This document shows positions 2,822-25,830 of a stretch of DNA of 64,000 bases, piece by piece (position 1 is the stretch's first letter; each line of letters starts with the position of its first letter). Below the pieces are notes generated by a model. It ran no database searches. It saw only the letters and a list, made by a program, of their open reading frames with translations, and had not been told where the DNA came from. The DNA is from a virus: IMG/VR virus record IMGVR_UViG_3300047550_003635; one strand, written 5' to 3'. The translations under genes were made by a program, and so were the position numbers.

Positions 2822-3151
2822 ATGTTTAAATGTAAAATCACATTTGACCAAATTACATATGGTCCCAAAACTGATTCATTGGAATCATCTGTTGCAATGG
2901 CATATGCCCAAGAATTAAAAGAAAAAGGTTATAGAAAAACCAGCAATGCATATTGTATTGTTTCACGAATTGACCGTGAAGATTGGCTAGAAGTTTTGGC
3001 AAAACAAATGCGATGCAGCGTAGCACATTTTTATAACGTTGATGGTAGCGGTGTCAGCGACCACTGGCATGACCATTATGTGCGGTGTTATAGTAAAGAC
3101 AAACATACGGTGCATCCCGATATTTTGAAATTTATTCCTACCTACTTTTAA
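2822..3151 (+). CDS. Hypothetical protein
   Basis: 109-aa ORF, co-oriented. Confidence 0.6.
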   Translation: MFKCKITFDQITYGPKTDSLESSVAMAYAQELKEKGYRKTSNAYCIVSRIDREDWLEVLAKQMRCSVAHFYNVDGSGVSDHWHDHYVRCYSKDKHTVHPDILKFIPTYF

Positions 3152-3160
3152 GGAAATAAA

Positions 3161-3361
3161 ATGACAGAAAATCGAAAACTAAAAGTATTCTATGTTGCCG
3201 AATGGGATGAAGGTCGTGGTGATAATGAATTCGTATATGAATCTGGTCCGTATAAAAGTTTTACAGATGCATTGCGTGAATCAAGTGAAAAGGAACGCAA
3301 TTCATTTGGACGGCAATATTGCGTGGTTGAAAGTATGATTGCGATTGAAAACGTCTATTGA
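3161..3361 (+). CDS. Hypothetical protein
   Basis: AAGGA RBS; stop overlaps TTGACA. Confidence 0.65.
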   Translation: MTENRKLKVFYVAEWDEGRGDNEFVYESGPYKSFTDALRESSEKERNSFGRQYCVVESMIAIENVY

Positions 3362-3386
3362 CAAATAAGTAATTATTCTGTATAAT
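3358..3386 (+). promoter_or_regulatory. Early promoter
   Basis: TTGACA-N17-TATAAT. Confidence 0.8.
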
Positions 3387-6931: not shown

Positions 6932-7162
6932 ATGGAAAATATTATGCGAGTTATTAATGATTATGGTTTGGTGCGTGTAGTAAGTCTTGGTGACCCCTAT
7001 ACTAAGGTGGCTGATATTGTCGTTGAAATTAAGGCGGGTAATCAGTGGGAATATTATGCTGGTTTTAATTCCCTGTCCGATGATTATGCATATACCAATG
7101 CAAAAGAGGCTGCTGGTCGTGCTATCAAAAAAATGGCAGCCGAAATTGTCGCAACGGAGTAA
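6932..7162 (+). CDS. Hypothetical protein
   Basis: Coupled ORF. Confidence 0.6.
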   Translation: MENIMRVINDYGLVRVVSLGDPYTKVADIVVEIKAGNQWEYYAGFNSLSDDYAYTNAKEAAGRAIKKMAAEIVATE

Positions 7163-7165
7163 AAA

Positions 7166-7348
7166 ATGAACGTTTATGTTTATACCACGTATTCTATTAC
7201 GATTCGCGTCAAGGCTGAAACGGAGGATGATGCATATCGTGGATTAATAGATAAAATCTATGATGCATCCCTGATGGATATTGAAATGCCTGCCGGGTAT
7301 GATTTTCAATTAACATCGTCATATGGTGTGGATGAACATGCGCGGTAA
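7166..7348 (+). CDS. Hypothetical protein
   Basis: GGAG RBS. Confidence 0.6.
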   Translation: MNVYVYTTYSITIRVKAETEDDAYRGLIDKIYDASLMDIEMPAGYDFQLTSSYGVDEHAR

Positions 7349-7517
7349 AAAACAAAAGTATAGAATTAGGTCTGGGTCTTGGTCTAGGTCTGGGTCTTGG
7401 TCCAGGTCTTGGTCTAGGTCTGGGTCTTGGTCTTTGTCTAGGTCTGGGTCTTGGTATGGGTCTTTGTCTGGGTCTTTGTCTGGGTCTTGGTCTGGGTCGG
7501 GACAAAATTCTGCTTGA
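7338..7517 (+). CDS. Ser-alternating (S-W/G/R) repeat micro-protein, copy 1
   Basis: MRGKKQKYR-(SX)n-GQNSA*; hexamer repeat NGGTCT at 7368-7500; start could also be 7332. Confidence 0.6.
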   Translation: MRGKKQKYRIRSGSWSRSGSWSRSWSRSGSWSLSRSGSWYGSLSGSLSGSWSGSGQNSA

Positions 7518-7542
7518 CATATATCGGTAATTAATCTATAAT
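7514..7542 (+). promoter_or_regulatory. Early promoter
   Basis: TTGACA-N17-TATAAT; -35 contains the stop of the repeat ORF. Confidence 0.85.
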
Positions 7543-7571
7543 TACTCCATACTGATTGATTGGAGATTGAA

Positions 7572-7949
7572 ATGTTGAAATCTTGGGAAGAATTGTCGCC
7601 GCTTGAACAGGCCCATGAAATCTATTCTGATATGCACAAGGATGCATATGGGTTTCGTCCTCGGAATGATGTTTCCGATTGGACGCTGGAAGATTTTGAA
7701 AAAGAATTCCAGACGATGGGTAAACAAATTGAAGAGGACATGGCTCAAGAAAAAATCAATCAGGACCGTGCAGCCCATGAATTGGAAATGACGCTACAAA
7801 ACCTTTTTGCTGCTGGTGCTAAAACCCGCACTATGGCTATTGGCTGGTTGCATGAAGCGCACGAAACCAACGGCGATGATTCCTATCTGGAATATCTCCT
7901 TGGTGTTGAATATGGGTATTTTAAAAAGTCGGAGAAATTGAATGGCTAA
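7572..7949 (+). CDS. Conserved phage hypothetical protein
   Basis: SDMHKDAYGFRPR motif common in phage early proteins. Confidence 0.7.
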   Translation: MLKSWEELSPLEQAHEIYSDMHKDAYGFRPRNDVSDWTLEDFEKEFQTMGKQIEEDMAQEKINQDRAAHELEMTLQNLFAAGAKTRTMAIGWLHEAHETNGDDSYLEYLLGVEYGYFKKSEKLNG

Positions 7950-8088
7950 TGTAAAAGATATGGTTATGGACGTGCTGGAATTGCTGGAAAGCGGTCTAGG
8001 CGTTGAGGATGTAGCAGAACGAATGAACCTATCGCCCGCTATCGTCCAATCGATTGCCAACGATTATGGTGATTTTGATACCGCTTGA
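7942..8088 (+). CDS. Small HTH-like protein (48 aa)
   Basis: LESGLGVEDVAERMNLSPAIVQ resembles a helix-turn-helix; stop in TTGACA. Confidence 0.55.
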   Translation: MANVKDMVMDVLELLESGLGVEDVAERMNLSPAIVQSIANDYGDFDTA

Positions 8089-8113
8089 CATTTAATCGGT
8101 AATTTGTTATTAT
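8085..8113 (+). promoter_or_regulatory. Early promoter
   Basis: TTGACA-N17-TATTAT. Confidence 0.7.
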
Positions 8114-8137
8114 TATATTTTACTGAAAAGGAATAAC

Positions 8138-8299
8138 ATGGAAACTGTTCAAATTATTCAAGCAGTTATCGGTGCATATCTGATTACTATTTCTTTTATT
8201 ACACTTACCGAAAATGTAGCATCATCCATTATTTTCAAGGTAATTCCGTTTTTCTCGGGTCTGGCACTTTTGGGTATTGTAACCAATCTTATTAAGTAA
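8138..8299 (+). CDS. Small membrane protein (53 aa, two hydrophobic segments)
   Basis: AAGGA RBS, hydrophobic translation. Confidence 0.6.
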   Translation: METVQIIQAVIGAYLITISFITLTENVASSIIFKVIPFFSGLALLGIVTNLIK

Positions 8300-8322
8300 T
8301 ATTAAGATTCGGAAATAATTAC

Positions 8323-8351
8323 TTGACAAATAGGTAATTATTTGCTATACT
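8323..8351 (+). promoter_or_regulatory. Early promoter
   Basis: TTGACA-N17-TATACT. Confidence 0.8.
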
Positions 8352-8357
8352 GATTCC

Positions 8358-8588
8358 ATGATGATTGATGATGTATTGCAATGGATTGGCGCCGGCTTTA
8401 TTATGGCTGGTCATGTTTTGAATAGTGTTGGACCTGATGCATATCCGTATAATATTGTAGCATTTACCATTGGTACGGTGTTTTTTCTTATTTGGACCTT
8501 TCGTGTTAGTAATAAGCCGCAGATGGTTGTAAATGTGGTTGCGATGATAACATGTATAACAGGATTGGTCAAAGCAATTACCGCTTGA
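8358..8588 (+). CDS. Small 3-TM membrane protein
   Basis: Three hydrophobic segments; probably leaderless after the promoter. Confidence 0.65.
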   Translation: MMIDDVLQWIGAGFIMAGHVLNSVGPDAYPYNIVAFTIGTVFFLIWTFRVSNKPQMVVNVVAMITCITGLVKAITA

Positions 8589-8613
8589 CATATATCGGTA
8601 ATTAATCTATAAT
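8585..8613 (+). promoter_or_regulatory. Early promoter
   Basis: TTGACA-N17-TATAAT. Confidence 0.8.
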
Positions 8614-8642
8614 GGTTTCATATTGTTAATAAGGAATAAATC

Positions 8643-8981
8643 ATGACGGTTGATATTAAACAGATTCCGCAAATCGTTCAAGAGGCTAAGAATGCTGCAT
8701 ATTATGCTGCGTCCAATTATCTTCATAATGAAATGAATGGTCAAGATAGTTTTCCCTGTGGCTTTGCATGGATTGGTGTGTCCGAAAAGGGCTCGACTAA
8801 ACTTGGACGCGCATTGATGCAAAACGGTTTTGAAAAAGCATATCGTGGTGGTCTGGAGATGTGGAATCCCTCGGGTCTGCCTGTGCAAAATATTGATGTC
8901 AAGGAAATTGGTGCCAAAGCTGCCGTTGAAGTCTTGCGGAAATATGGTATTTCAGCATACACTGGCAGCCGTCTGGACTAA
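8643..8981 (+). CDS. Conserved phage hypothetical protein
   Basis: CGFAW...SRLD* motif family. Confidence 0.7.
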   Translation: MTVDIKQIPQIVQEAKNAAYYAASNYLHNEMNGQDSFPCGFAWIGVSEKGSTKLGRALMQNGFEKAYRGGLEMWNPSGLPVQNIDVKEIGAKAAVEVLRKYGISAYTGSRLD

Positions 8982-8983
8982 TT

Positions 8984-9124
8984 ATGCTTAAAAGTAAAAA
9001 ACAAAAATGTAGGTCTTGGTCTGGGTATGGGTCTTTGTCTGGGTCTAGGTCTTGGTTTGGGTCTTGGTCTTGGTCTGGGTCTAGGTCTTGGTCTGCGTCT
9101 GGGTCGGGTAAAAATTCTGCTTGA
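8984..9124 (+). CDS. Ser-alternating repeat micro-protein, copy 2 (46 aa)
   Basis: MLKSKKQKCRSWSGYGSLSGSRSWFGSWSWSGSRSWSASGSGKNSA*; missed by ORF track. Confidence 0.6.
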   Translation: MLKSKKQKCRSWSGYGSLSGSRSWFGSWSWSGSRSWSASGSGKNSA

Positions 9125-9149
9125 CAAATATTGGTAATTAATCTATAAT
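9121..9149 (+). promoter_or_regulatory. Early promoter
   Basis: TTGACA-N17-TATAAT. Confidence 0.85.
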
Positions 9150-9164
9150 GGTTCCATACTGATT

Positions 9165-9446
9165 ATGAAAGTTAAAAATTATATGGACGAATTGCAGACT
9201 GTTCCGCTCAAATATTGTGAATATGACAAGGACCGTAAGGTTCTTAAACTTGCATCAGAATATATCGGTATGCCTAAACAGTTTTTTGTGCATTCTGAAA
9301 AAACAGGCAAGGACGTCCGATTTGTTGTTGTCGGCGAACATGATATTTTATTTGACCAAGACCAATGGGATGGTGAACAACAAATTTATCGCCCAATGGG
9401 TCATGTCCCTACGGTAGACCATCTTGTGATTTACCATCAATATTAA
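9165..9446 (+). CDS. Hypothetical protein
   Basis: ORF after promoter. Confidence 0.6.
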   Translation: MKVKNYMDELQTVPLKYCEYDKDRKVLKLASEYIGMPKQFFVHSEKTGKDVRFVVVGEHDILFDQDQWDGEQQIYRPMGHVPTVDHLVIYHQY

Positions 9447-9457
9447 TAGGAAATAAC

Positions 9458-9775
9458 ATGAAATTTGAAAAAACAAACGGCTCAAATGCAAACGGTACCT
9501 GTTATCAGGATATTGTTTATACTGATTATGAAAGTCTTGTAGGAGTATTTGGTAAGCCCAATTATGGTCCTCTTGAATTTGATGATGGTGATAAAGTGAC
9601 ATGTGAATGGATTCTAAAATTTCAGGATGGCACTATTGCAACCATCTATGATTGGAAAACGTATTCAGGAACTCCGATGGGCACTTATGGCTGGCATATC
9701 GGTGGTTTTGATAAGGATGCATCAATCCGCGTCCGTGAAGCCCTTTTGTTGCATGATAACGTGGTAGCGCAATAA
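9458..9775 (+). CDS. Conserved phage hypothetical protein
   Basis: DKVTCEW...ATIYDWK...WHIGG motif family. Confidence 0.7.
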   Translation: MKFEKTNGSNANGTCYQDIVYTDYESLVGVFGKPNYGPLEFDDGDKVTCEWILKFQDGTIATIYDWKTYSGTPMGTYGWHIGGFDKDASIRVREALLLHDNVVAQ

Positions 9776-9795
9776 AAAATTATGGAGAGAGCCTA

Positions 9796-9824
9796 TTGAC
9801 AAATACTAATTAATTTGATACAAT
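9796..9824 (+). promoter_or_regulatory. Early promoter
   Basis: TTGACA-N17-TACAAT. Confidence 0.75.
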
Positions 9825-9870
9825 GGTTTCTGTAGTTTAAAAATTTAATTTTAATTTTTTGGAGATTGTA

Positions 9871-10134
9871 ATGAAAAAACTTGTGAATGTTGCTGAGGTT
9901 GAAGGTGAAGGTCTGGTTAAACTCATGGGTGAGCGTGTTACCCTGTTTTGCATGAATTACATTTATACAGGGAAGCTGGTTGGTGTCAATGATACTTGTG
10001 TCCTTCTGGAAGATGCTGGTATTGTTTACGAAACTGGCGAATTGACCACCAAGTCTTGGAAAGATATGCAAAAACTTCCGGGCGAGTGGTATGTTTCGAC
10101 CTCGGCTATTGAATCCTTCGGCTTGCTGAAGTAA
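9871..10134 (+). CDS. Sm/LSm (Hfq-like)-fold protein
   Basis: Sm1-like LVKLMGERVTL..YIYTGKLVGVND..VLLEDA and Sm2-like WYVSTSAIESF. Confidence 0.6.
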   Translation: MKKLVNVAEVEGEGLVKLMGERVTLFCMNYIYTGKLVGVNDTCVLLEDAGIVYETGELTTKSWKDMQKLPGEWYVSTSAIESFGLLK

Positions 10135-10162
10135 TTTAATAGAAGTCTATAGGACTTAAAAC

Positions 10163-10197
10163 AAAACAGGTAGAGAAAGAACCTCTACCTGTTTTTT
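10163..10197 (+). terminator. Intrinsic terminator
   Basis: AAAACAGGTAGAG-N7-CTCTACCTGTTTTTT. Confidence 0.75.
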
Positions 10198-10199
10198 AT

Positions 10200-10424
10200 A
10201 TGATAAAAAGTAAAAAACAAAAATATCGGTCTTTGTCTAGGTCTAAATCTTGGTCTGGGTCTTTGTCTAGGTCTGAGTCTGGGTCTGGGTCTGAGTCTTG
10301 GTCTTTGTCTAGGTCTAGGTCTGGGTCTAGGTCTTGGTTCGGGTCTTTGTCTGGGTCTTGGTCTTGGTATGGGTCTGGGTCTAAATCTTGGTCTTGGTCT
10401 GGGTCGGGTAAAAATTCTGCTTGA
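10200..10424 (+). CDS. Ser-alternating repeat micro-protein, copy 3 (74 aa)
   Basis: MIKSKKQKYR-(SX)n-GKNSA*. Confidence 0.6.
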   Translation: MIKSKKQKYRSLSRSKSWSGSLSRSESGSGSESWSLSRSRSGSRSWFGSLSGSWSWYGSGSKSWSWSGSGKNSA

Positions 10425-10449
10425 CATTTACCGATTAAAAGCGTATTAT
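10421..10449 (+). promoter_or_regulatory. Early promoter
   Basis: TTGACA-N17-TATTAT. Confidence 0.8.
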
Positions 10450-10491
10450 TACTCCAATAGTCCTTTACTGATTGATTAAACGGAGTCCGAT

Positions 10492-10746
10492 ATGCGAACC
10501 AAGCAAATATATGAATCGTTCAAAAATTCACAGAAAATTCGAATTATGGTGAATGGTTTTGGCATGTATATGCAAATCAAGGACATTCCCAATATTTGCA
10601 CGACTATTCATCGTGTCGCTGTAGAGGCTACATTGGTTGAAATGGATATGTTTAATAGTCTTGGACTGGGTAAAACGATAACAGTTTATGATAGTAAAAT
10701 GAATCCTGTTAGCGTTGATGTTCAGATTGATTTGGTTGAGGAATAG
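10492..10746 (+). CDS. Hypothetical protein
   Basis: GGAG RBS. Confidence 0.65.
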   Translation: MRTKQIYESFKNSQKIRIMVNGFGMYMQIKDIPNICTTIHRVAVEATLVEMDMFNSLGLGKTITVYDSKMNPVSVDVQIDLVEE

Positions 10747-10750
10747 AAAA

Positions 10751-11005
10751 ATGATTAAACTGTCAGAAAATAAAACTGCTCTAATTAATTTGGAAAGCAC
10801 AATTTCGGCATTGGAAAATATTGCCGAATTGATTAAAATGTATGAAGTGGACAAGCCGGGTCCCGCATATTGCCTATTTAGGTATGCCGAAGGTATTCCC
10901 GTTACCGAGGTGCAATTTGACCGACAAATTATGGTCGATGCATTGTATGCACAGCGATTGGTTTTGATTGATTATTTGGCTAATTTGGGTATTGATGCAT
11001 CATGA
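10751..11005 (+). CDS. Hypothetical protein
   Basis: GAGGA RBS. Confidence 0.6.
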   Translation: MIKLSENKTALINLESTISALENIAELIKMYEVDKPGPAYCLFRYAEGIPVTEVQFDRQIMVDALYAQRLVLIDYLANLGIDAS

Positions 11006-11172
11006 AGCGCAGTAAAAAACAAAAATATATGTCTTGGTCTAGGTCTGGGTATGGGTATAGGTCTAGGTCTTGGTCCGGGTCTAGGTCTTGGTCTTGGTCT
11101 GAGTCTAGGTCTTGGTCTAGGTCTTGGTCTTGGTCTGGGTCTAAATCTTGGTCTTGGTCTTTGTCTGGGTAA
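11002..11172 (+). CDS. Ser-alternating repeat micro-protein, copy 4 (56 aa)
   Basis: MKRSKKQKYM-(SX)n*; ATGA overlap with upstream stop; missed by ORF track. Confidence 0.6.
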   Translation: MKRSKKQKYMSWSRSGYGYRSRSWSGSRSWSWSESRSWSRSWSWSGSKSWSWSLSG

Positions 11173-11188
11173 AAATAGTGTTTAATCT

Positions 11189-11377
11189 ATGTTAAAAAGT
11201 AAAAAACAAAGATATCGGTCTTGGTCTGAGTCTGGGTCTAGGTCTGGGTCTGGGTATTGGTCTTTGTCTTGGTCTAGGTCTGGGTCTTGGTCTGGGTCTG
11301 GGTCGGGATCTTGGTCTTGGTCTTGGTCTGGGTCTGAGCCTGAGTCTGCGTCTAGGTCGGGTAAAAATTCTGCTTGA
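11189..11377 (+). CDS. Ser-alternating repeat micro-protein, copy 5 (62 aa)
   Basis: MLKSKKQRYR-(SX)n-GKNSA*. Confidence 0.6.
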   Translation: MLKSKKQRYRSWSESGSRSGSGYWSLSWSRSGSWSGSGSGSWSWSWSGSEPESASRSGKNSA

Positions 11378-11402
11378 CAAATACCGATTAATTGTCTATA
11401 AT
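11374..11402 (+). promoter_or_regulatory. Early promoter
   Basis: TTGACA-N17-TATAAT. Confidence 0.85.
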
Positions 11403-11429
11403 GATTCCATACTGATTAGGAAAAGCCAA

Positions 11430-11621
11430 ATGAATGTTTATATTGTGTCATGTTCTAAATTTACCATGCCTTTGGGTGTATATTCTACTGAAGCCGATGC
11501 TGAGAATTCCCTTGCTGCTTTTATGAAAAAATACCCGTCCTATAGTGCAAATTATGAGGTTTCCGAGTATATTTTGGGTGCTCCTGCTGCTTTTAATCCT
11601 TCGTCAGCCGTTGTTGAGTAA
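11430..11621 (+). CDS. Hypothetical protein
   Basis: M.VYIV...LGVYST motif, similar to 12024 gene. Confidence 0.65.
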   Translation: MNVYIVSCSKFTMPLGVYSTEADAENSLAAFMKKYPSYSANYEVSEYILGAPAAFNPSSAVVE

Positions 11622-11862
11622 AAAAATCATGCGAAAAAAATGGCGTATTATTAGTAAAAATACTCATTCTCAAATTATAATGAAAGCCGGGGCTTCCAGA
11701 GTAGCCATGTCCTCAAAAGAAAGCCGAGTATTTTCACCAATGCGAAATACCGATATAAACCCCAATGATTGGTCAGAATTACTCAAAAAAGCTATGATAC
11801 AGACCATTCGTTTCCGTAATGAATTCTATAGATAATATACGGAATTGACCAAAAATCCGCGG

Positions 11863-11881
11863 AATGATAATGATTCTCATT
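11863..11881. promoter_or_regulatory. Fur box
   Basis: AATGATAATGATTCTCATT, one mismatch from the 9-1-9 Fur inverted repeat. Confidence 0.65.
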
Positions 11882-11963
11882 CATAATTGATGATTTATAT
11901 TAAAGTGACGAAAATACGACATGTTGTAAAAAAACAACACTTTTCCGAAAATAAACGGTACCA

Positions 11964-11992
11964 TTGACAAATACTGATTAATTTGCTATTAT
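11964..11992 (+). promoter_or_regulatory. Early promoter
   Basis: TTGACA-N17-TATTAT. Confidence 0.8.
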
Positions 11993-12023
11993 TACTCCAT
12001 ACTGATTGATTAAAGGAATTCCG

Positions 12024-12209
12024 ATGAAAGTTTACGTGGTTGCCGATTTTATTGAATATGAAGGTTATTCTGAGCCGTTGGGTGTATTTGCGACCTGTGA
12101 AGAGGCTCAAGCCTATGTGAAATACCTTGGGGACAAAGGTGCTGGCGATATTCTTGATATTTTCGAGCGTGAATTGGGTAAATTTTATCGGGATGGTTCG
12201 GTGGCTTAG
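12024..12209 (+). CDS. Hypothetical protein
   Basis: AAGGA RBS; MKVYVV..LGVFAT..EA motif. Confidence 0.65.
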   Translation: MKVYVVADFIEYEGYSEPLGVFATCEEAQAYVKYLGDKGAGDILDIFERELGKFYRDGSVA

Positions 12210-12222
12210 AATTAAAAACCAC

Positions 12223-12251
12223 TTGACATTTACCGATTAATTGTCTATAAT
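12223..12251 (+). promoter_or_regulatory. Early promoter
   Basis: TTGACA-N17-TATAAT. Confidence 0.85.
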
Positions 12252-12283
12252 TACTCCATACTGATTGATAACGGAGATACCCC

Positions 12284-13003
12284 ATGAAATTGCTTACTAC
12301 TGCGAATACTAAAACCCTCAAATCGAACGGTCTTGGTTATATTACTGCGGTTCTCCACTTGTCTCCCGCTGCTACCTCTGGTTTCCAAGTGTGCCCGAAA
12401 GCCTCTGAAGGGTGCAAAATGTCATGTCTGGCCTTTGCTGGTCGAGGCGTTTTCTCTACTGTTCAAAAAGCACGGATTGAAAAGACAAAATACTTTTTTC
12501 AGAACCGCGAAGCCTTTATGGCGCAATTGGTCAAGGAAGTAGAATCCTTCGTCAAAAAGGCTGCTAAACTTGACGCTATTCCTGCCATTCGCTTGAATAC
12601 TCTGTCGGATTTGCCCTTCTATAAATTCCGTGTTACTCGCGCTGGTGTTGAGTATCGTAACATCATGGACGCATTCCCCAATGTTCAATTCTATGATTAT
12701 ACTGCGGTGGTTTCAAAGGCTGGTGCTAGTATTTCCAACTACCACTTGACATTTTCCCGCAAGGAAAGCAACCAGGCTGATGTGGAGAAAGCGATTAAAC
12801 TTGGCTATAATGTGACAGTGGTTTTCGATATTGCCAAGACTGCACCGCTTCCTGCGACGTATATGGGATTGCCTGTTATTTCGGGCGATAACGATGATGC
12901 CCGCTTCCTTGACCCGAAAGGGGTAATCGTTGGTCTCTATATCAAAGGTACCAATAAAGCTAAACAAGCGGCTCGGGACTCTGGTTTCGCGGTTTCTGTT
13001 TAA
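12284..13003 (+). CDS. GP88-family phage protein (Cys-cluster, radical-SAM-like)
   Basis: VCPKASEGCKMSCL..GRG, RLN..SD, FYDYT, YHLTFS motifs. Confidence 0.7.
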   Translation: MKLLTTANTKTLKSNGLGYITAVLHLSPAATSGFQVCPKASEGCKMSCLAFAGRGVFSTVQKARIEKTKYFFQNREAFMAQLVKEVESFVKKAAKLDAIPAIRLNTLSDLPFYKFRVTRAGVEYRNIMDAFPNVQFYDYTAVVSKAGASISNYHLTFSRKESNQADVEKAIKLGYNVTVVFDIAKTAPLPATYMGLPVISGDNDDARFLDPKGVIVGLYIKGTNKAKQAARDSGFAVSV

Positions 13004-13016
13004 AATCAGTCACTTA

Positions 13017-13032
13017 TGTTTCACGTGAAACA
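13017..13032. promoter_or_regulatory. parS centromere-like site
   Basis: Perfect 16-bp palindrome TGTTTCACGTGAAACA, intergenic. Confidence 0.75.
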
Positions 13033-13055
13033 ATTTCCGATAAACCACTTGACAA

Positions 13056-13244
13056 ATGATAAAATCCAAAAAACAAAAATATCGGTCTTGGTTTAGGTCT
13101 GGGTTTAGGTCTGGGTCTTGGTCTGGGTCTTGGTCTTGGTCTAGGTCTTGGTCTTGGTCTTGGTCTTTGTCTGGGTCTTTGTCTGGGTCTTGGTCTGGAT
13201 CTAGGTCTGGGTCTTGGTCTGGGTCGGGTAAAAATTCTACTTGA
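13056..13244 (+). CDS. Ser-alternating repeat micro-protein, copy 6 (62 aa)
   Basis: MIKSKKQKYR-(SX)n-GKNST*. Confidence 0.55.
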   Translation: MIKSKKQKYRSWFRSGFRSGSWSGSWSWSRSWSWSWSLSGSLSGSWSGSRSGSWSGSGKNST

Positions 13245-13269
13245 CAAATACCGATTAAAAGCGTATTAT
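13241..13269 (+). promoter_or_regulatory. Early promoter
   Basis: TTGACA-N17-TATTAT. Confidence 0.8.
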
Positions 13270-13300
13270 TACTCCATACTGATTAATACGGAGCTACCAA

Positions 13301-13504
13301 ATGCAAAAACTGTCCAAAAAGACTACCCGCGAATTGTCTAAACTGTTCAATTCCTGCTCGGTTTTTACTACCATGGCTAAGGATGCGATTCTGGAAGAAA
13401 ACTACGATTTGGGTGAAAGAGCCATGGTGTGGCACAATGAAGCAGCTAACGAATTGGCCAAGTATGGAATCTCGGTTGTCAAATTTAACGTGGGAAATCG
13501 ATAA
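13301..13504 (+). CDS. Hypothetical protein
   Basis: GGAG RBS. Confidence 0.65.
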   Translation: MQKLSKKTTRELSKLFNSCSVFTTMAKDAILEENYDLGERAMVWHNEAANELAKYGISVVKFNVGNR

Positions 13505-13677
13505 TGACCGTCGCAAACGTAGCATATATCGCATCCAAGGGTAACCTGAAACTGTTCTCCCTTGGCAATTACCAGTATCAAATCTGCAAATTTACCAATG
13601 GCAACGTGAACACCGTCAAAAACCTCTATGGCTATGACCTTGACCGTGCGTTGGACACTCTGAAAGCGATGGGCTAA
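13504..13677 (+). CDS. Hypothetical protein (57 aa)
   Basis: TAATG coupling; read by hand. Confidence 0.55.
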   Translation: MTVANVAYIASKGNLKLFSLGNYQYQICKFTNGNVNTVKNLYGYDLDRALDTLKAMG

Positions 13678-20686: not shown

Positions 20687-20778
20687 GGAAGTGTGGCTGA
20701 GCCTGGTTTAAGGCAACGGTCTTGAAAACCGTCGGCTCCGTAAGGGGTCCGTGAGTTCGAATCTCACCGCTTCCGCCA
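20687..20778 (+). tRNA. tRNA-Ser(TGA)
   Basis: Cloverleaf, long variable arm, CCA. Confidence 0.92.
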
Positions 20779-20786
20779 AATATAAA

Positions 20787-20878
20787 GGAGACTTGGCAGA
20801 GTGGTCGATTGCAGGAGTTTGCTAAACTCTAGGCTGGCGAAAGCTGGTCCATAGGTTCAAATCCTATAGTCTCCGCCA
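20787..20878 (+). tRNA. tRNA-Ser(GCT)
   Basis: Cloverleaf, long variable arm, CCA. Confidence 0.92.
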
Positions 20879-20885
20879 GATTTTT

Positions 20886-20980
20886 ACTTCTCAGCACTGG
20901 TGTGCGGCGGTGTCTTATAAACACTGGAGATTGGTCAGATAGGCTGAAACGGTAGGGTTCGAATCCCTAGGGAAGTACCA
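20886..20980 (+). tRNA. Atypical tRNA, anticodon TAT (Ile), long variable arm
   Basis: ACTTCTC/GGGAAGT acceptor, loop CT-TAT-AA, GGTTCGAATCC, CCA. Confidence 0.7.
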
Positions 20981-20992
20981 AAATTCGTTTAG

Positions 20993-21000
20993 TATAAATA
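20993..21000 (+). promoter_or_regulatory. T4-type late promoter
   Basis: TATAAATA upstream of HNH gene. Confidence 0.65.
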
Positions 21001-21041
21001 ATAGTTATACTTATTATTTTTCACTAAGATAGGAATAAAAT

Positions 21042-21434
21042 ATGAAAAAATGTATTTACTGTAATTTTGATTTAGTTGATGATTTTTATCCGTCGCATCC
21101 TAAAGCACACAAGAGATGTTGGAAAACAAGAACTTACCAATTGAAATTAAAAATAATTTATGATTATATGATGAAGCGTGGTGGACTTCGTTGTTCTAAA
21201 TGTGGTTACGATAATCATCCATCATCGTTATGTTTTCATCATAGAAATCCTGATGAAAAGGATCCGAAATGGAATAAACAATGGGCTAAAGCAAAATTGT
21301 ATAAAGAATTAGATAAGTGTGATATCTTATGTTTGAACTGTCATCAAGAGCATCATGCAATCACATCTGAATATGACCATTGGACAGACATGATAACAAA
21401 AATAAAGAATGATACATGGGAAATAAAAAAATAA
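21042..21434 (+). CDS. HNH homing endonuclease inserted in tRNA array
   Basis: CSKCGY..LCFHHRNP..C..LCLNCHQEHH. Confidence 0.8.
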   Translation: MKKCIYCNFDLVDDFYPSHPKAHKRCWKTRTYQLKLKIIYDYMMKRGGLRCSKCGYDNHPSSLCFHHRNPDEKDPKWNKQWAKAKLYKELDKCDILCLNCHQEHHAITSEYDHWTDMITKIKNDTWEIKK

Positions 21435-21443
21435 TAGAATAAC

Positions 21444-21521
21444 AGTGGGATGGCTGAGTGGACAAAAGCAACCGTCTGCAAAACGGTAAAATCGTGGGTT
21501 CGAATCCCACTCCTACTTCCA
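21444..21521 (+). tRNA. tRNA-Cys(GCA)
   Basis: Cloverleaf, U73, CCA. Confidence 0.9.
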
Positions 21522-21551
21522 AGTTGTTGTTTTAGAAGTAAAAGAAAATGC

Positions 21552-21579
21552 TTGACAAATGACGTAAAAAGAGTATAAT
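21552..21579 (+). promoter_or_regulatory. Internal tRNA-array promoter
   Basis: TTGACA-N16-TATAAT. Confidence 0.75.
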
Positions 21580-21597
21580 GATTTACATAGATTGATT

Positions 21598-21623
21598 GTT
21601 CTTTAAAAATTAGGATTATTTGT
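21598..21623 (+). promoter_or_regulatory. boxA-like antitermination element, copy 2
   Basis: Identical 26-mer between the promoter and tRNA-Gln. Confidence 0.65.
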
Positions 21624-21699
21624 AGGGGATTAGCCAAGCTGGTAAGGCAACGGATTTTGATTCCGTCATGCACTGGTTCGAATCCAGTATCCCCCACCA
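21624..21699 (+). tRNA. tRNA-Gln(TTG)
   Basis: Cloverleaf, CCA. Confidence 0.9.
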
Positions 21700-21787
21700 T
21701 ATTGAAATACATTCTTGTTAGAATGAAACTCTCGTAGAATGCCAATGGCCGCTTCAAAACCCGAGCGTAGAGTGTGTTTCAATATGG
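21697..21787 (+). repeat. Repeated long-stem RNA element, copy 2
   Basis: CCATATTGAAATACATTCT...AGAGTGTGTTTCAATATGG. Confidence 0.7.
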
Positions 21788-21789
21788 TA

Positions 21790-21926
21790 ACAGGTGGCAG
21801 CATGAGCGTGGTGTGATCCTCGAGGTAAGCGCCCGGACATGCGCTCACTCGTGCAGAGCAGTCGGGCGGCCGCCCGACCTCGGTGGAGTGAGAGATATGG
21901 GTTCGATTCCCATCTACTTGTGACCA
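21790..21926 (+). ncRNA. tRNA-like ncRNA (~137 nt) with T-arm and CCA but enlarged body
   Basis: ACAGGTGG/CTACTTGT stem, ATGGG-TTCGATT-CCCAT, ACCA end. Confidence 0.6.
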
Positions 21927-22048
21927 TATTGAAGCGCATTGCAAGCCCGAGTATAAACGTTAATACTTGGTAGAATGTGGAAGTTAGATATAAACTGGCC
22001 AGTGATAGCTAACAAAACATTTAAATAGTGTAGTGTGTTTCAATATGG
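21924..22048 (+). repeat. Repeated long-stem RNA element, copy 3
   Basis: CCATATTGAAGCGCATTGCA...TGTAGTGTGTTTCAATATGG. Confidence 0.7.
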
Positions 22049-22051
22049 TAA

Positions 22052-22143
22052 TTAGGCTACTTTCTGATGAGTTCTCGCCTGACAATAGAGAACGAAACAA
22101 CAAGTCGCGGTTGATGCTCCGGACATCCCCCTTGTTGTAAAAG
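22052..22143 (+). ncRNA. Type I hammerhead ribozyme
   Basis: CTGATGA core, stem II GTTCTC/GAGAAC, GAAA, stem III CAACAAG/CTTGTTG, GTA cleavage triplet, stem I CTTT/AAAG. Confidence 0.85.
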
Positions 22144-22147
22144 ATAT

Positions 22148-22221
22148 GGGAGTATAGTATAGTGGTAATACAGTGGACTTTTAATCCATCAACCAGAGTT
22201 CGATTCTCTGTGCTCCTACCA
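22148..22221 (+). tRNA. tRNA-Lys(TTT)
   Basis: Cloverleaf, CCA. Confidence 0.9.
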
Positions 22222-22228
22222 AGATTTT

Positions 22229-22302
22229 GCCTCCATGTTGTAATGGTAACCTGCTGGGCTGTCTACCTAGCGTCAGGGGTTCGATTCCCCTTGGGGGCGC
22301 CA
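22229..22302 (+). tRNA. tRNA-Asp(GTC)
   Basis: Cloverleaf, CCA. Confidence 0.9.
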
Positions 22303-22309
22303 ATATAAT

Positions 22310-22401
22310 GCGTGAACGGCAGAGACGGTGGTTCTGCAACAGACTGTAAATCTGTTCCCACAGGGTAAACATTGGAGGTTCGAATCCTTCTTCACGCACC
22401 A
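22310..22401 (+). tRNA. tRNA-Tyr(GTA)
   Basis: Cloverleaf, long variable arm, CCA. Confidence 0.9.
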
Positions 22402-22417
22402 AGATATATAATAATAC

Positions 22418-22491
22418 GGGGACTTCGTATAACGGGATTACGGTAGCTTTGCAAGCTATTCACAAGGGTTCGACTCCCTTAGTCTCCACCA
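22418..22491 (+). tRNA. tRNA-Ala(TGC)
   Basis: Cloverleaf, G3-U70, CCA. Confidence 0.9.
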
Positions 22492-22498
22492 GATTTAT

Positions 22499-22575
22499 TG
22501 CGGGAGGGTGAAACGGTTTCCACGTTGGTCTCATAAGCCAAAGACATCAGGTTCAACTCCTGTTTCCCGCAACCA
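22499..22575 (+). tRNA. tRNA-Met(CAT), initiator-like
   Basis: TGCGGGA/TCCCGCA acceptor, TTCAA T-loop. Confidence 0.8.
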
Positions 22576-22582
22576 GTTTTAA

Positions 22583-22657
22583 GCCCTGTTAGTTCTAGTG
22601 GTAAAACGTCGGTTTTGTAATCCGAATTCGGGTGTTCGATTCACCCACGGGGCACCA
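22583..22657 (+). tRNA. tRNA-Thr(TGT)
   Basis: Cloverleaf, CCA. Confidence 0.9.
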
Positions 22658-22665
22658 AGTTTTAA

Positions 22666-22742
22666 CCGAGTGTAGCGCAGTCTGGTAGCGCAGATGCTTT
22701 GGGAGCATAAGGTCGGGAGTTCGAATCTCTCCACTCGGACCA
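22666..22742 (+). tRNA. tRNA-Pro(TGG)
   Basis: Cloverleaf, CCA. Confidence 0.9.
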
Positions 22743-22749
22743 ATATAAT

Positions 22750-22828
22750 ACCCCATTAGTTCAGTGGATTTAAGAACGAGTGGCTACGGACCACTAGGTC
22801 GGGAGTTCGATTCTCTCATGGGGTGCCA
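22750..22828 (+). tRNA. tRNA-Arg(ACG)
   Basis: Cloverleaf, CCA. Confidence 0.9.
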
Positions 22829-22899
22829 ATATGTTGCAACTAATCTTAGGGATTGAATGTTAGCCTAAGTTAAAATGAAAAAAATCATTCACAGATTAT

Positions 22900-22978
22900 T
22901 CCTCATAATCCGAGCAAGGTGCACGGACGTGACTGTTAATCACTGACTAGCAAGGTTCGATTCCTTGATGGGGAGCCA
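22900..22978 (+). tRNA. tRNA-Asn(GTT)
   Basis: Cloverleaf, CCA. Confidence 0.88.
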
Positions 22979-22981
22979 GAA

Positions 22982-23174
22982 CGTGCCGTCTAATCAACGG
23001 CTAGTCTTACCCAGACGATGAGAAGTGGGATGATTTCCCAAGGGTGGTTCCAGTCCTACCGAACTGGCGCTGGCAATGCGAGAACGGTTCTTGTCGTGGA
23101 GCGGGTGGAGGGTGTAGTGAGGGGTTAAAAACCTGATGCATACACTAAATTACCGCCGAAGAATGTCAGAGCAT
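22982..23174 (+). ncRNA. Unassigned GC-rich structured ncRNA (~190 nt)
   Basis: Non-coding, multiple hairpins, lies between two tRNAs. Confidence 0.55.
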
Positions 23175-23177
23175 AAA

Positions 23178-23254
23178 GCCCCGGTGACGGAACTGGCATA
23201 CGTGTTGGTCTTAGAAGCCAAATTTTGTGGGTTCGACTCCCACCTGGGGCACCA
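23178..23254 (+). tRNA. tRNA-Leu(TAG), short variable arm
   Basis: 77-nt cloverleaf, CCA. Confidence 0.88.
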
Positions 23255-23260
23255 AATTTC

Positions 23261-23336
23261 GGATAGTTGGCTGAGCGATTGAGGCGCTGCTCTCATAAGG
23301 CAGTTTAGAGTGGTTTAACTCCACTACTATCCACCA
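23261..23336 (+). tRNA. tRNA-Met(CAT), elongator-like
   Basis: Cloverleaf, CCA. Confidence 0.8.
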
Positions 23337-23341
23337 GTAAT

Positions 23342-23415
23342 GCTTCGATAGTTAAATGGTATAACGGTCGGCTGATAACCGGCTATCACAAGTTCGATTC
23401 TTGTTCGAAGCACCA
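23342..23415 (+). tRNA. tRNA-Ile(GAT)
   Basis: Cloverleaf, CCA. Confidence 0.9.
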
Positions 23416-23421
23416 ATATAT

Positions 23422-23496
23422 GACTGCGAGGTGTTACGGTAGCATGCCGGTCTCCAAAACCGTGCGGATGGGGTTCAATTCCCTACGTGGTCGCCA
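23422..23496 (+). tRNA. tRNA-Trp(CCA)
   Basis: Cloverleaf, G73, CCA. Confidence 0.88.
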
Positions 23497-23520
23497 TTTT
23501 TATTAACAAGAGGTGTAATC

Positions 23521-23997
23521 ATGCAAAAATTAAACATAGATGAAGTAAAAGATTTTTTGATGAAACAAAGTGAAAGCACCAAAGTTTATATTGGTGCTGA
23601 TTCAGAACGATTTCTATTGAATGGAAAATGGTATGCAGATTACACAATTGCTATTGTTATTCATTTGGATGGTTGTCACGGTTGTAAAATCTTCGGTGAA
23701 ACTACACGTGAATTGGATTTTGACCAACGTAAAGATAAACCAGCAATGCGTTTGATGAATGAAGTTTACAAGGCATCTGAAATGTTCCATCGTTTAGCAG
23801 ATGTGTTGGAAGACCGTTACGTCGAAGTTCATTTGGACATTAATCCAAACGAAATGCATGGTTCTTCATGTGTTGTTCAACAAGCTATTGGTTATATTCG
23901 TGGAACTTGTAATGTTGTTCCTCTTGTTAAGCCAAATGCTTTCGCAGCAAGTTATGCAGCAGACCGTTTGAAACATGTATTGTCATATGCTGCATAA
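23521..23997 (+). CDS. RNase H-like YkuK-family protein
   Basis: YIGADS, RLMNEV, VHLDIN, KP.AFAAS.AAD motifs. Confidence 0.8.
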   Translation: MQKLNIDEVKDFLMKQSESTKVYIGADSERFLLNGKWYADYTIAIVIHLDGCHGCKIFGETTRELDFDQRKDKPAMRLMNEVYKASEMFHRLADVLEDRYVEVHLDINPNEMHGSSCVVQQAIGYIRGTCNVVPLVKPNAFAASYAADRLKHVLSYAA

Positions 23998-24010
23998 TAT
24001 ATAAGAGTAT

Positions 24011-24084
24011 GCGGGTTTAGTTTAGTGGTAAAATCAGTGCTTGCCAAGCATTAGATGAGAGTTCGATTCTCTCAGCCCGCACCA
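24011..24084 (+). tRNA. tRNA-Gly(GCC)
   Basis: Cloverleaf, CCA. Confidence 0.9.
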
Positions 24085-24085
24085 C

Positions 24086-24114
24086 TTGACAAATAACGAT
24101 TAATGTAGTATAAT
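24086..24114 (+). promoter_or_regulatory. Promoter between the two tRNA-Gly genes
   Basis: TTGACA-N17-TATAAT. Confidence 0.75.
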
Positions 24115-24122
24115 TTTAAAAT

Positions 24123-24196
24123 GCGGGATTAGTTTAATGGTAAAACGAGTGCCTTCCAAGCACACGACAGGAGTTCGATTCTCCTATCCCGCTCCA
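24123..24196 (+). tRNA. tRNA-Gly(TCC)
   Basis: Cloverleaf, CCA. Confidence 0.9.
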
Positions 24197-24200
24197 TTTT

Positions 24201-24341
24201 ATGAATTATAAGAGAAAAAAATCTAAAAGAAATGTAAGATGCACGATTTGCACCAAACTTCGTTGGTTGGGCAATTCAAAGCGCAGAAAAAGAATTAGTG
24301 ATATTAAAAATGATTTAAAAGAGAAATCGTTTAACGAATGA
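24201..24341 (+). CDS. Small basic CxxC protein (46 aa)
   Basis: MNYKRKKSKRNVRCTICTKLRWLGNSK...; ATGA coupling to the next gene. Confidence 0.5.
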   Translation: MNYKRKKSKRNVRCTICTKLRWLGNSKRRKRISDIKNDLKEKSFNE

Positions 24342-24880
24342 AAAAACGTGAAGCATATCAGCAAGGTATTCTTGATGGAATGTGTGGATTTTATTCCATC
24401 ATAAATGCTTTGTATTATCTTAAACCAGATTTATCTCCAACAAAAGCTGAAAAGCTGTTGAGAAATTTGGTAAAGACTAAGCCTCGCTCATTTCATAAGA
24501 TGTATATTGAAGGCACATATTTTGAAAATGTTGTAGATTTGATGAAACATGTTGTAAATTATGAAAGAGGTTTTTCTGATATAAATTTTAAAGTTTTATA
24601 TCAAGATGATGATTTTGAAGATGCATATGAATACATTTCTTGTTTAAACGAAGAAATTGATGGTAAAAATAGTGTTGCAATAATTTCAGTCGGTGAGCCA
24701 CTTCATCATTGGACTGTAGCAACAAAAGTAAATTTAAAACAAAACAGATTGTATCTTTTTGATTCTTATCGTCAATATTATAAACATGATTATTTGGATT
24801 TAGATGAATTAGATTTGAAAAAGAAAGAAAATCGTTTTCAATTATACACTTACGAAACATTAATAGTTCGTAAAAAATAA
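24338..24880 (+). CDS. Papain-fold cysteine peptidase-like protein
   Basis: Q..GMCG..SIINAL, HHWTV, LFDS (Cys-His-Asp). Confidence 0.6.
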   Translation: MKKREAYQQGILDGMCGFYSIINALYYLKPDLSPTKAEKLLRNLVKTKPRSFHKMYIEGTYFENVVDLMKHVVNYERGFSDINFKVLYQDDDFEDAYEYISCLNEEIDGKNSVAIISVGEPLHHWTVATKVNLKQNRLYLFDSYRQYYKHDYLDLDELDLKKKENRFQLYTYETLIVRKK

Positions 24881-24881
24881 T

Positions 24882-24957
24882 ACCCCCGTAACTCAGCGAA
24901 CAGAGTGTCTCGGTCCTAACGAGAAAGTCACAGGTTTGAATCCTGTCGGGGGTACCA
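24882..24957 (+). tRNA. tRNA-Arg(CCT)
   Basis: Cloverleaf, CCA. Confidence 0.85.
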
Positions 24958-24962
24958 ATATT

Positions 24963-25076
24963 ATGAGAAAATTTATTTTAGGTTTTATCTTAGGAAGTCT
25001 AATAGGAATCTTCACATATAAAAAAGGATTCCAAGACGGACGAGAAAAACAAGCAAAATTTTATAGAAAAGATTAA
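24963..25076 (+). CDS. Small membrane peptide (37 aa)
   Basis: MRKFILGFILGSLIGIF... Confidence 0.45.
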   Translation: MRKFILGFILGSLIGIFTYKKGFQDGREKQAKFYRKD

Positions 25077-25077
25077 T

Positions 25078-25153
25078 GGTGGCTATAATGTAGTGGTCTG
25101 CATACTTGGCTGTGAACCAGGTAGTGAGAGTTCAATCCTCTCTAGTCACCCCA
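25078..25153 (+). tRNA. tRNA-His(GTG)
   Basis: G-1/C73, cloverleaf, CCA. Confidence 0.9.
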
Positions 25154-25166
25154 AAGAAAGAATATT

Positions 25167-25697
25167 ATGCCAAGCGTATTTTTAGTTTCAGACACACACT
25201 TCGGTCATCGCGGTGTATGTCAATTTTTAAGAGAAGATGGAATAACAAAACTTCGTCCGTGGGATAATCCAGCGGATATGGATGAAGAAATGATTAAGCG
25301 TTGGAACGAAACAGTAAAGCCAACAGACAAAGTTTATCATCTTGGTGATGTTGTTATTAATCGTAAAGCATTAAAAACATTATCAAGATTAAACGGTGAT
25401 AAAGTATTAATAAAAGGTAATCACGATATATTCAGATTAAATGAATACACAGAATATTTTCGTGATGTTCGTGGGTATCATGTCATGAACAATTTTATAC
25501 TTAGTCATATACCAGTTCATCCTGATAGTAAAGGAAGATTTGTTGGAAACATTCATGGTCATCTTCACGCAAGAAAAATAAATGACCCTTGGTATCATTG
25601 TGTTTGTGTTGAACAGACTGATTTTAAACCCATTCTGTTCGAAGATGTTATGAAAAGAATAAAAGAACAAAGCCTCGATAACTCAGCGGTAGAGTAA
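25167..25697 (+). CDS. Calcineurin-like metallophosphoesterase
   Basis: SDTHFGH, HLGD, GNHD, HGHLH; last codons overlap tRNA-Val. Confidence 0.85.
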   Translation: MPSVFLVSDTHFGHRGVCQFLREDGITKLRPWDNPADMDEEMIKRWNETVKPTDKVYHLGDVVINRKALKTLSRLNGDKVLIKGNHDIFRLNEYTEYFRDVRGYHVMNNFILSHIPVHPDSKGRFVGNIHGHLHARKINDPWYHCVCVEQTDFKPILFEDVMKRIKEQSLDNSAVE

Positions 25698-25746: not shown

Positions 25747-25751
25747 GTTTT

Positions 25752-25825: not shown

Positions 25826-25830
25826 GTTTT

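Follow-up and report, generated by a model that had tools for sequence, protein, structure and literature searches.

Ser-alternating micro-genes of a T4-like freshwater phage as the possible micro-protein half of a two-gene module with an Sm-fold protein

Eukaryotic Sm-fold proteins such as SmD1, SmD3, SmB and LSm4 carry Arg-Gly (RG) tails, and the Arg-Ser (RS) domains of SR proteins are a comparable type of sequence. Cationic dipeptide-repeat polypeptides (poly-GR and poly-PR) are likewise produced from the GGGGCC hexanucleotide repeat of C9orf72, and these peptides bind RNA and ribosomes and phase-separate. In T4-type phages, repeated promoter early stem-loop (PeSL) cassettes and their recombination have been described (PMC2839356, PMC4122927). 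Here we describe six small open reading frames (ORFs), termed micro-genes, in an uncultured freshwater T4-like myovirus (IMG/VR record IMGVR_UViG_3300047550_003635), analysed as a single stretch of 64,000 nt that is referred to as the window and whose full length provides all positions given below. In each of them a short head is followed by an array in which Ser alternates mostly with Trp, Gly or Arg (Ser-X). We propose, with a probability of about 0.45, that the six ORFs are translated paralogues that supply the micro-protein member of a two-gene phage module, whose second member is an Sm-fold protein, and that the peptides act with this protein on RNA.

The six ORFs had been picked out by a sequence-only reading of the window, made without database searches, and all of them were recovered on the plus strand as frames of 46-74 codons (Table 1). 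The basic heads it reported are present as M-x-K-S-K-K-Q-K-Y-R or near variants, the head of copy 1 resembles the MRGLKQKYRS heads of relatives, and copies 3 and 6 have a common head start as well as nearly identical promoters downstream. The products, of 46-74 amino acids, are 35-40% Ser and contain 5-9 Trp, 5-10 Gly and 3-7 Arg each, with net charges of +6 to +11, isoelectric points of 10.6-12 and neither a signal peptide nor a hydrophobic segment. An AlphaFold2 (AF2) model of the copy 3 product had a predicted local distance difference test (pLDDT) score of 50 and no secondary structure, and the Ser-X peptides are strongly basic and, as modelled, probably unstructured. When one mismatch at most was allowed, the pattern (TCTNGG)x3 matched 92 times, always on the plus strand and always within the six arrays (7369-13227), and gave 0 matches in 100 dinucleotide-preserving shuffles. 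Tandem Repeats Finder returned periods of 6, 12, 18 and 30 in the arrays, indicating that blocks such as (Ser-Gly-Ser-Trp)n have been amplified.

The same architecture was found in at least 120 IMG/VR contigs by an exact-pattern scan with (GGTCTN)x5, a search of other phages of the kind the sequence-only reading had recommended. In most of the contigs listed, the array lies in a small Ser-X ORF that opens with an in-frame ATG 8-11 codons ahead of the array and closes with a stop 0-3 codons beyond it. The heads vary by lineage and are always in frame (MIKKSIYKRNI, MVTKRTKY, MITKRTKWRR, MIRGKKQK, MRYLFEGS, MNNAVTGCC and others), a clear AGGAGG Shine-Dalgarno (SD) site precedes them in some lineages, and tandem clusters, with up to 14-17 copies, are present in many contigs. 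A Ser-X micro-ORF pattern identified 290 micro-ORFs in the fetched loci. Because the TCTNGG composition leaves four of the six frames open, the antisense (Arg-Pro)n frame included, an open frame alone proves nothing, and the stops that single mutations should create are the more telling measure. At the X position of 164 non-identical arrays, 927 TGG codons were counted against 1 TAG and 8 TGA, all of which were terminal codons or fell in one unrelated GC-rich array (L113). G-to-A changes were frequent in the other codons (78 GAG to 924 GGG, 51 CAG to 279 CGG, 35 AAG to 602 AGG, together with 35 GGA, 18 AGA and 11 CGA), and by analogy with these, untranslated arrays should hold about 75 TAG and about 33 TGA. 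This exclusion of stops spans approximately 3000 X codons.

The dominant Ser codon differs between lineages (TCT in 54 micro-ORFs, TCG in 16, TCA in 9, AGC in 6 and AGT in 2), with a constant peptide pattern. In relatives, a single Ser codon accounts for 94-100% of Ser per ORF and NGG for a fraction of 0.79-0.94 (TCT and NGG in the window), and GG at six-base intervals is the sole nucleotide feature that all lineages share. Even in the window, the Ser at head position 4 is encoded by AGT in four copies and by TCC in copy 6. The six arrays contain 0 in-frame stops, as had been claimed, and neighbouring arrays across the family share their phase in 19 of 20 cases. With its 6-nt unit and neighbouring arrays in phase, the repeat differs from a phase-variation contingency locus, for which a unit that is not a multiple of three is required. 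We conclude that the six ORFs are very probably translated in the Ser-X frame, and the earlier picture of paralogous, translated, low-complexity micro-genes of the early region, variable in repeat order and length, agrees with the comparative data. These sequence comparisons weaken a purely nucleic-acid role of the arrays; the earlier suggestion that the repeat acts as RNA or DNA is disfavoured by relatives that spell the same peptide with other hexamers, and the NGG bias leaves it some room.

The element that defines the module, absent from the sequence-only account, is the partner gene upstream of copy 3, which encodes an acidic protein. Homologues of this partner, collected with jackhmmer, were present in about 48-50 of the pattern-derived loci, on the array strand and ending 12-130 nt before the first array. 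The AF2 model of the partner, built from a 38-row alignment, had a pLDDT of 91, with a helix at residues 14-17 and strands at 22-27, 30-39, 43-54, 65-68, 73-76 and 82-84, and it displays the N-terminal helix and strongly bent five-stranded beta-sheet by which the Sm fold is recognised. Its top Foldseek matches in the PDB were all Sm or LSm proteins (SmD3, LSm5, SmB and archaeal Sm; E ~3e-4, TM score 0.55-0.64), and on the strength of the predicted structure the product is an Sm-fold protein. No Pfam family, LSM and Hfq included, was matched at E<=1, and no PHROG was matched; Phage_Hfq and LSM were among its nearest named clusters in the ESM Atlas, with low scores (0.80-0.83).

A profile of the partner retrieved 326 IMG/VR relatives, of which the best 80 were examined and 75 had enough downstream DNA. 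A Ser-[WGR] micro-ORF lies directly downstream in 68 of these 75, and 27 of the 68 overlap the Sm-like gene by ATGA or GTGA. ORF clustering around the 80 Sm-like loci revealed no third conserved gene, the recurrent clusters being antisense artefacts only. The median net charge of Sm-like family members is -3, with 99% of 120 relatives negative, and the micro-proteins range from +6 to +15. The Sm-like family divides into two subfamilies, the IESFG type of the window, which is accompanied by basic K-Q-K-aromatic heads, and another accompanied by hydrophobic or neutral heads, so that by sequence the head type tracks the Sm subfamily. Within the window only copy 3 occupies the canonical place downstream of the Sm-like gene, and the other five copies are dispersed 0.6-3 kb from it. 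In a complex prediction with micro-protein residues 1-40, the Sm-like protein scored 0.01, below the mark, a result that supports neither side.

Homologues of the partner form 3851 clusters in a large protein collection, all annotated as 'hypothetical' and none with a Pfam domain. The lone deposited phage record that holds the pair is from an uncultured spring-water phage, where both the Sm gene and the array are unannotated. A megablast search of 7000-13600 against cultured and deposited phages gave no match, Pfam and PHROGs contained no family for the micro-proteins, the ESM Atlas returned no usable match for copy 3, and no published description of the peptides or of the Sm-like/micro-protein pair was found in the literature searched. 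The Sm-like/(Ser-X)n module is a very widespread one without a known published description.

A version of the pair is also encoded on bacterial chromosomes. In metagenome-assembled genomes of Nitrospinaceae/Nitrospinales, on contigs of up to 3.37 Mb, the Sm-like gene overlaps by ATGA or GTGA a non-repeat ORF of 51 codons, which is rich in Ser, Trp, Gly and Arg, has a basic head and is of equal length in four genomes. Between these four genomes the ORF differs by 13-19 synonymous and 11-13 non-synonymous codons, a sequence pattern that places the non-repeat peptide under purifying selection. The pair sits among a helix-turn-helix gene, an Mrp/ApbC-type ATPase gene and gyrA, and 10 of 120 Nitrospinota genomes carry it, each in a single copy. 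Four Nitrospinales genomes with the pair gave no Pfam Hfq match, a weak hint that the pair substitutes for Hfq there.

In the window, five of the copies run into promoters that are perfect or near-perfect matches to the sigma70-type consensus. About 28 consensus TTGACA-17-TATAAT promoters were counted on the plus strand between 3358 and 36484, many with a common spacer and 'tactccatactgattga' downstream; a repeated promoter cassette of this kind is typical of T4-like hyperplastic regions. The G-K/Q-N-S-A/T tail that the sequence-only reading had described is present in copies 1, 2, 3, 5 and 6, with its stop formed by the TGA within TTGACA; its standing as a feature of the peptide did not survive comparison. 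L129, the nearest relative in IMG/VR, has an Sm-like protein that is 79% identical; its Sm-like gene runs through an ATGA overlap into one micro-gene that ends in GGG-TAA, after which comes AAATTCTGC-TTGACA. Five copies of the window precede the same DNA, and a 5-nt difference (TCGGG) shifts the frame to give G-K-N-S-A and the stop at the TGA of TTGACA, while copy 4, like L129, reads the tail DNA (GGGTAAAAAT...TTGACA) as GGG-TAA. Because this DNA is read in two frames, the G-K-N-S-A tail is translated promoter-upstream DNA (with an A-tract spanning about -46 to -42 ahead of the -35 box) and not a conserved peptide. Fusion to a promoter was found in 9 of the 290 micro-ORFs, namely those of the window, of its lineage and one further case (L082), and the array as an UP-like promoter element was rejected as a general explanation on account of this lineage-specific distribution.

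Contacts between micro-genes and preceding ORFs, also pointed out beforehand for copies 1, 2 and 4, are as described. The ATG of copy 1 lies 8 nt ahead of the stop of ORF 7166-7348, with an overlap of 11 nt with the end of that ORF, copy 2 starts 2 nt past the stop codon that closes ORF 8643-8981, and the start of copy 4 overlaps ORF 10751-11005 by ATGA. Copy 4 ends in GGG-TAA with no promoter after it, and the junction between copies 4 and 5 holds a piece of promoter spacer and a -10 box (TTAATCTAT). The ATG of copy 6 lies immediately 3' of a -35-like remnant (cTTGACAaATG), and a perfect 16-bp palindrome, TGTTTCACGTGAAACA, occupies 13017-13032 in the spacer just 5' of this copy. Copy 3, which lacks an SD site, is separated from the Sm-like gene by a 65-nt spacer with a terminator-like hairpin, so that coupling to the Sm-like gene does not occur in the window. 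This hairpin has a folding free energy of -22.5 kcal/mol (z -5.0), and its stem is identical in a variant strain, with the differences confined to the loop and flanks.

The placement of the copies differs between strains. In strain L210, a Logan contig approximately 90% identical to the window, the gene order is different, with breakpoints at the micro-gene/promoter cassettes. There, the position after the Sm-like gene that the terminator and copy 3 hold in the window is occupied by a 62-residue CxxC...CC zinc-ribbon-like gene (804-992), and the genes that lie between copy 3 and the GP88-family gene are missing. The GP88-family gene of the window (12284-13003) encodes a 239-residue protein that matches Pfam GP88 (PF17338, E 4e-40) and phrog_1617 and is conserved in large IMG/VR phage contigs (L121-L128). 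In the L210 orthologue of copy 6, which was not called as a gene, the ORF is kept with a different array (46 against 62 codons), and both differences in the head are synonymous. We suggest that recombination between the repeated early promoters has spread the unit of head, array, tail and early promoter through the hyperplastic early region, a route similar to PeSL-type shuffling. The arrays themselves would change by replication slippage of 6-, 12- and 18-nt units, which could be tolerated because function would depend on composition and less on exact order.

For expression, we envisage that host RNA polymerase would transcribe the micro-genes early and that ribosomes would reach copies 1, 2, 4 and 5 through coupling to the preceding ORF; the A-rich heads of copies 3 and 6 might support SD-independent initiation. 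The window carries 28 tRNA genes (20687-27123); among them are Arg(CCU), Gly(UCC), Trp(CCA), Ser(UGA) and Leu(CAA), which serve the predominant codons of the micro-genes. The six micro-genes, in 359 codons, contain 42 GGG and 26 AGG, compared to 21 and 24 in the 11,782 codons of window ORFs of at least 150 amino acids, which makes a phage tRNA supply for micro-gene codons a circumstantial case. The four sequencing runs examined consist of assembled contigs broken at the arrays, and regions without RNA cover are uninformative in them. In the sediment metagenome of run X8, contig depth over the arrays was 5-25 times that of the flanks at 7221-7441, 8989-9209, 10978-11419 and 12967-13187, apparently from Ser-X arrays of other phages in the sample that map there.

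In the proposed reading, the cationic, flexible, Trp/Arg-rich peptides would act with a ring of the Sm-like protein as RNA-binding tails supplied in trans, Arg contacting phosphates and Trp stacking on bases, and together peptides and ring would bind RNA, anneal it or condense it while the host is being taken over. The presence of several paralogues would increase both dose and diversity. The X codons of NGG type, through which Trp, Gly and Arg interconvert by single mutations, could be re-dealt by slippage and serve as a generator of peptide diversity. If composition matters over order, then both the tolerated slippage and the many paralogues would be explained. The assignment of the peptides as tails in trans is tentative, a possibility somewhat short of the broader module, and slightly more doubtful is the wider generalisation, in which a system of two components, the acidic Sm-fold ring and the hypervariable cationic Ser-(Trp/Gly/Arg) peptides encoded apart from it, would handle RNA or form condensates in many uncultured phages and, in a fixed non-repeat form, in Nitrospinaceae.

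Several observations weigh against this proposal. The uridine-binding residues of the Sm1 'MN' (Asn) and Sm2 'RG' (Arg-Gly) motifs are not conserved in the partner (alignment A2), and for a protein that is also acidic and without a Pfam LSM or Hfq match, RNA binding is only putative. In L210 the Sm-like gene precedes a different gene, indicating that the adjacency of the Sm-like gene and the micro-gene is not obligatory. Copies 3 and 6 have neither an SD site nor an upstream ORF for coupling, and copy 3 comes right after a strong terminator. Evidence of expression is limited to a single short RNA-library contig (run X18, 93% identical) that spans the end of ORF 8643-8981 into copy 2, for which carry-over of DNA is possible. 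The X codons are almost always NGG, with GGG making up 95% of the Gly codons of the arrays, a share that drops to 15% for the Sm genes next to them and to 3% for the long ORFs of the window, and the Ser positions show 35 synonymous against 201 non-synonymous changes. This uniformity is not explained by selection on the peptide alone; the codon bias may come from slippage-driven concerted evolution, with the single codon of Trp holding the unit.

The NGG bias and the scarcity of synonymous Ser changes also favour a role of the repeat as nucleic acid, either as a platform for binding the Sm ring or as a promoter-upstream element, with translation incidental or serving only to keep the RNA unfolded. 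The NGG bias is universal whatever the Ser codon, five arrays stand immediately upstream of promoters, and 2 of 4 arrays fold better than shuffles (z -5.1 and -6.1). We nevertheless consider this role quite improbable, as beyond the GG the hexamer changes between lineages with the Ser-X reading kept, stops are excluded from exactly one frame, in-frame ATGs, SD sites and ATGA coupling are the rule, the Nitrospinaceae version is a non-repeat protein under purifying selection, and promoter fusion is confined to the few micro-ORFs noted above. Even less probable are functionless, self-propagating coding microsatellites, harmless slippage-prone hexamers that spread with the promoter cassettes. The extreme variation in length and order would suit them, as would the tolerance of Phe, Ala, Tyr and Pro at Ser positions, the homogenised arrays and the absence of copy 3 from a related strain; a module that recurs, together with its conserved partner, heads and coupling, across hundreds to thousands of phages would not, nor would the exclusion of stops over so many X codons or a bacterial clade that keeps a non-repeat orthologue under purifying selection. 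The antisense strand was considered as well, on which every array of the window is also open and could encode (Arg-Pro)n peptides (MSSRIFTRPRPRP...) like proline-rich antimicrobial peptides, the variable hexamer position then falling on the third base of Pro codons and being synonymous. This reading is effectively refuted by the Ser codons of relatives, TCA becoming TGA on the minus strand (108 codons) and AGC giving Ala-Pro; moreover, the minus-strand start lies inside the -35 box without an SD site, copy 4 has no minus-strand start, and the neighbouring genes and strong promoters are all on the plus strand. The minus-strand (Arg-Pro)n frames (MSSRIFTRPRP...) at 7209-7520, 8978-9127, 10185-10427, 11192-11380 and 13014-13247, with none at copy 4, were judged to be a compositional by-product.

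A protein role other than RNA handling is unlikely, though less so than these nucleotide-level or antisense explanations. The peptides would then be effectors or decoys directed at a host target (membrane, nucleoid, ribosome or defence protein), and the acidic Sm-fold protein would serve as their chaperone or antidote with no part for RNA. Arg/Trp-rich peptides are a known class of membrane-active antimicrobials. The opposite charges of peptide and Sm-like protein suit such a pairing, the genes lie in the early region among small genes of the host-take-over type, hypervariability and copy-number variation between strains fit an arms-race target, and the canonical RNA-binding residues of Sm proteins are, as noted above, not conserved in alignment A2. 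Set against this, a stable non-repeat version beside gyrA and an Mrp-type ATPase in Nitrospinaceae fits a housekeeping role better, the peptides lack a signal peptide or hydrophobic segment, and binding between effector and partner is hypothetical.

Elsewhere in the window, which carries T4-type baseplate genes and belongs to a phage that occurs in freshwater metagenomes from several studies, two other repeats were recorded. At 28243-28522, a 66-bp unit repeated about 3.9 times in tandem (73% match) lies inside a 500-residue ORF (27655-29157; no PHROG family) and could be a repeated protein module or iterons. ARAGORN called two overlapping tmRNA-like genes at 38788-39305, beside a Lys/Glu-rich 15-/27-bp repeat (39347-39430), and these calls may be false positives.

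Table 1. Coordinates of the micro-genes, the partner gene, associated elements and the bacterial pair loci (window positions unless a contig is named)
Feature	Position	Strand	Details
Micro-gene copy 1	7338-7517	+	59 amino acids; head MRGKKQKYR; net charge +10
Early promoter, sigma70-type (TTGACA-17-TATAAT)	7514-7542	+	fused to end of copy 1
Micro-gene copy 2	8984-9124	+	46 amino acids; net charge +8
Early promoter	9121-9149	+	fused to end of copy 2
Sm-fold partner gene	9871-10134	+	87 amino acids; acidic (net -3); ends ...AIESFGLLK
Intrinsic-terminator-like hairpin	10163-10197	+	9-bp G+C-rich stem, 10167-10175/10183-10191, then T6
Micro-gene copy 3	10200-10424	+	74 amino acids; net charge +11
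Early promoter	10421-10449	+	fused to end of copy 3
Micro-gene copy 4	11002-11172	+	56 amino acids; net charge +11
Micro-gene copy 5	11189-11377	+	62 amino acids; net charge +6; 16 nt downstream of copy 4
Early promoter	11374-11402	+	fused to end of copy 5
Micro-gene copy 6	13056-13244	+	62 amino acids; net charge +10
Early promoter	13241-13269	+	fused to end of copy 6
tRNA-Arg(CCU)	24882-24957	+	reads only AGG
Nitrospinota pair loci	L225 (3.37-Mb contig) 2980-3374; L226 2995-3404; also L219, L222, L224, L227, L229, L230		

If the micro-genes make working proteins, they represent a large unannotated class of phage genes that gene callers skip, and given the 3851 'hypothetical' Sm-like clusters, the early programmes of phages would gain in the module an element that is both new and common. 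In the pair, a fold of classical RNA chaperones is combined with dipeptide-repeat peptides of a type otherwise familiar from RNA biology in eukaryotes and from repeat-expansion disease, and if the proposal is true, viruses and bacteria would have in this pair their own counterpart of Sm proteins that bear low-complexity tails. The module is, in addition, a naturally occurring coding microsatellite in which frame, composition and evolvability are all apparently maintained, and its chromosomal version in Nitrospinaceae offers a non-viral entry point to its function.

Each of the known systems shares some features with the module and departs from it in others. The phage peptides are short, strongly cationic and contain Arg and Trp, as are indolicidin, tritrpticin and synthetic (RW)n among the Arg/Trp-rich antimicrobial peptides; they differ in having no signal or export features, Ser at every second residue and abundant Gly, and in being made intracellularly. 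Near-identical early promoters in a hyperplastic region and cassette-bounded indels between strains are shared with the PeSL cassettes (PMC2839356, PMC4122927), whereas the window has one stem-loop, and five of its promoters follow a translated micro-gene and not a terminator. The partner is a small Sm-fold protein, as are Hfq (PF17209) and Phage_Hfq (PF23874), from which it is set apart by the lack of a Pfam match noted above, and Hfq is not known to have a repeat micro-protein partner. As in C9orf72, a hexanucleotide repeat gives rise to a cationic dipeptide-repeat polypeptide, but the phage genes have an ATG start, a conserved head and one selected frame in place of non-AUG translation in several frames, their second residue is mixed (Trp, Gly or Arg), and they are evolved genes and not a pathological expansion. 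The likeness to SmD1, SmD3, SmB, LSm4 and the RS domains of SR proteins lies in the combination of an Sm fold with a cationic, dipeptide-periodic Arg/Gly/Ser region. In the phage, this combination takes a different form, with Trp-rich peptides in strict Ser alternation, an acidic Sm-like protein without the Sm1 and Sm2 motifs, and a low-complexity part that is encoded as a separate, coupled micro-protein, often in many copies.

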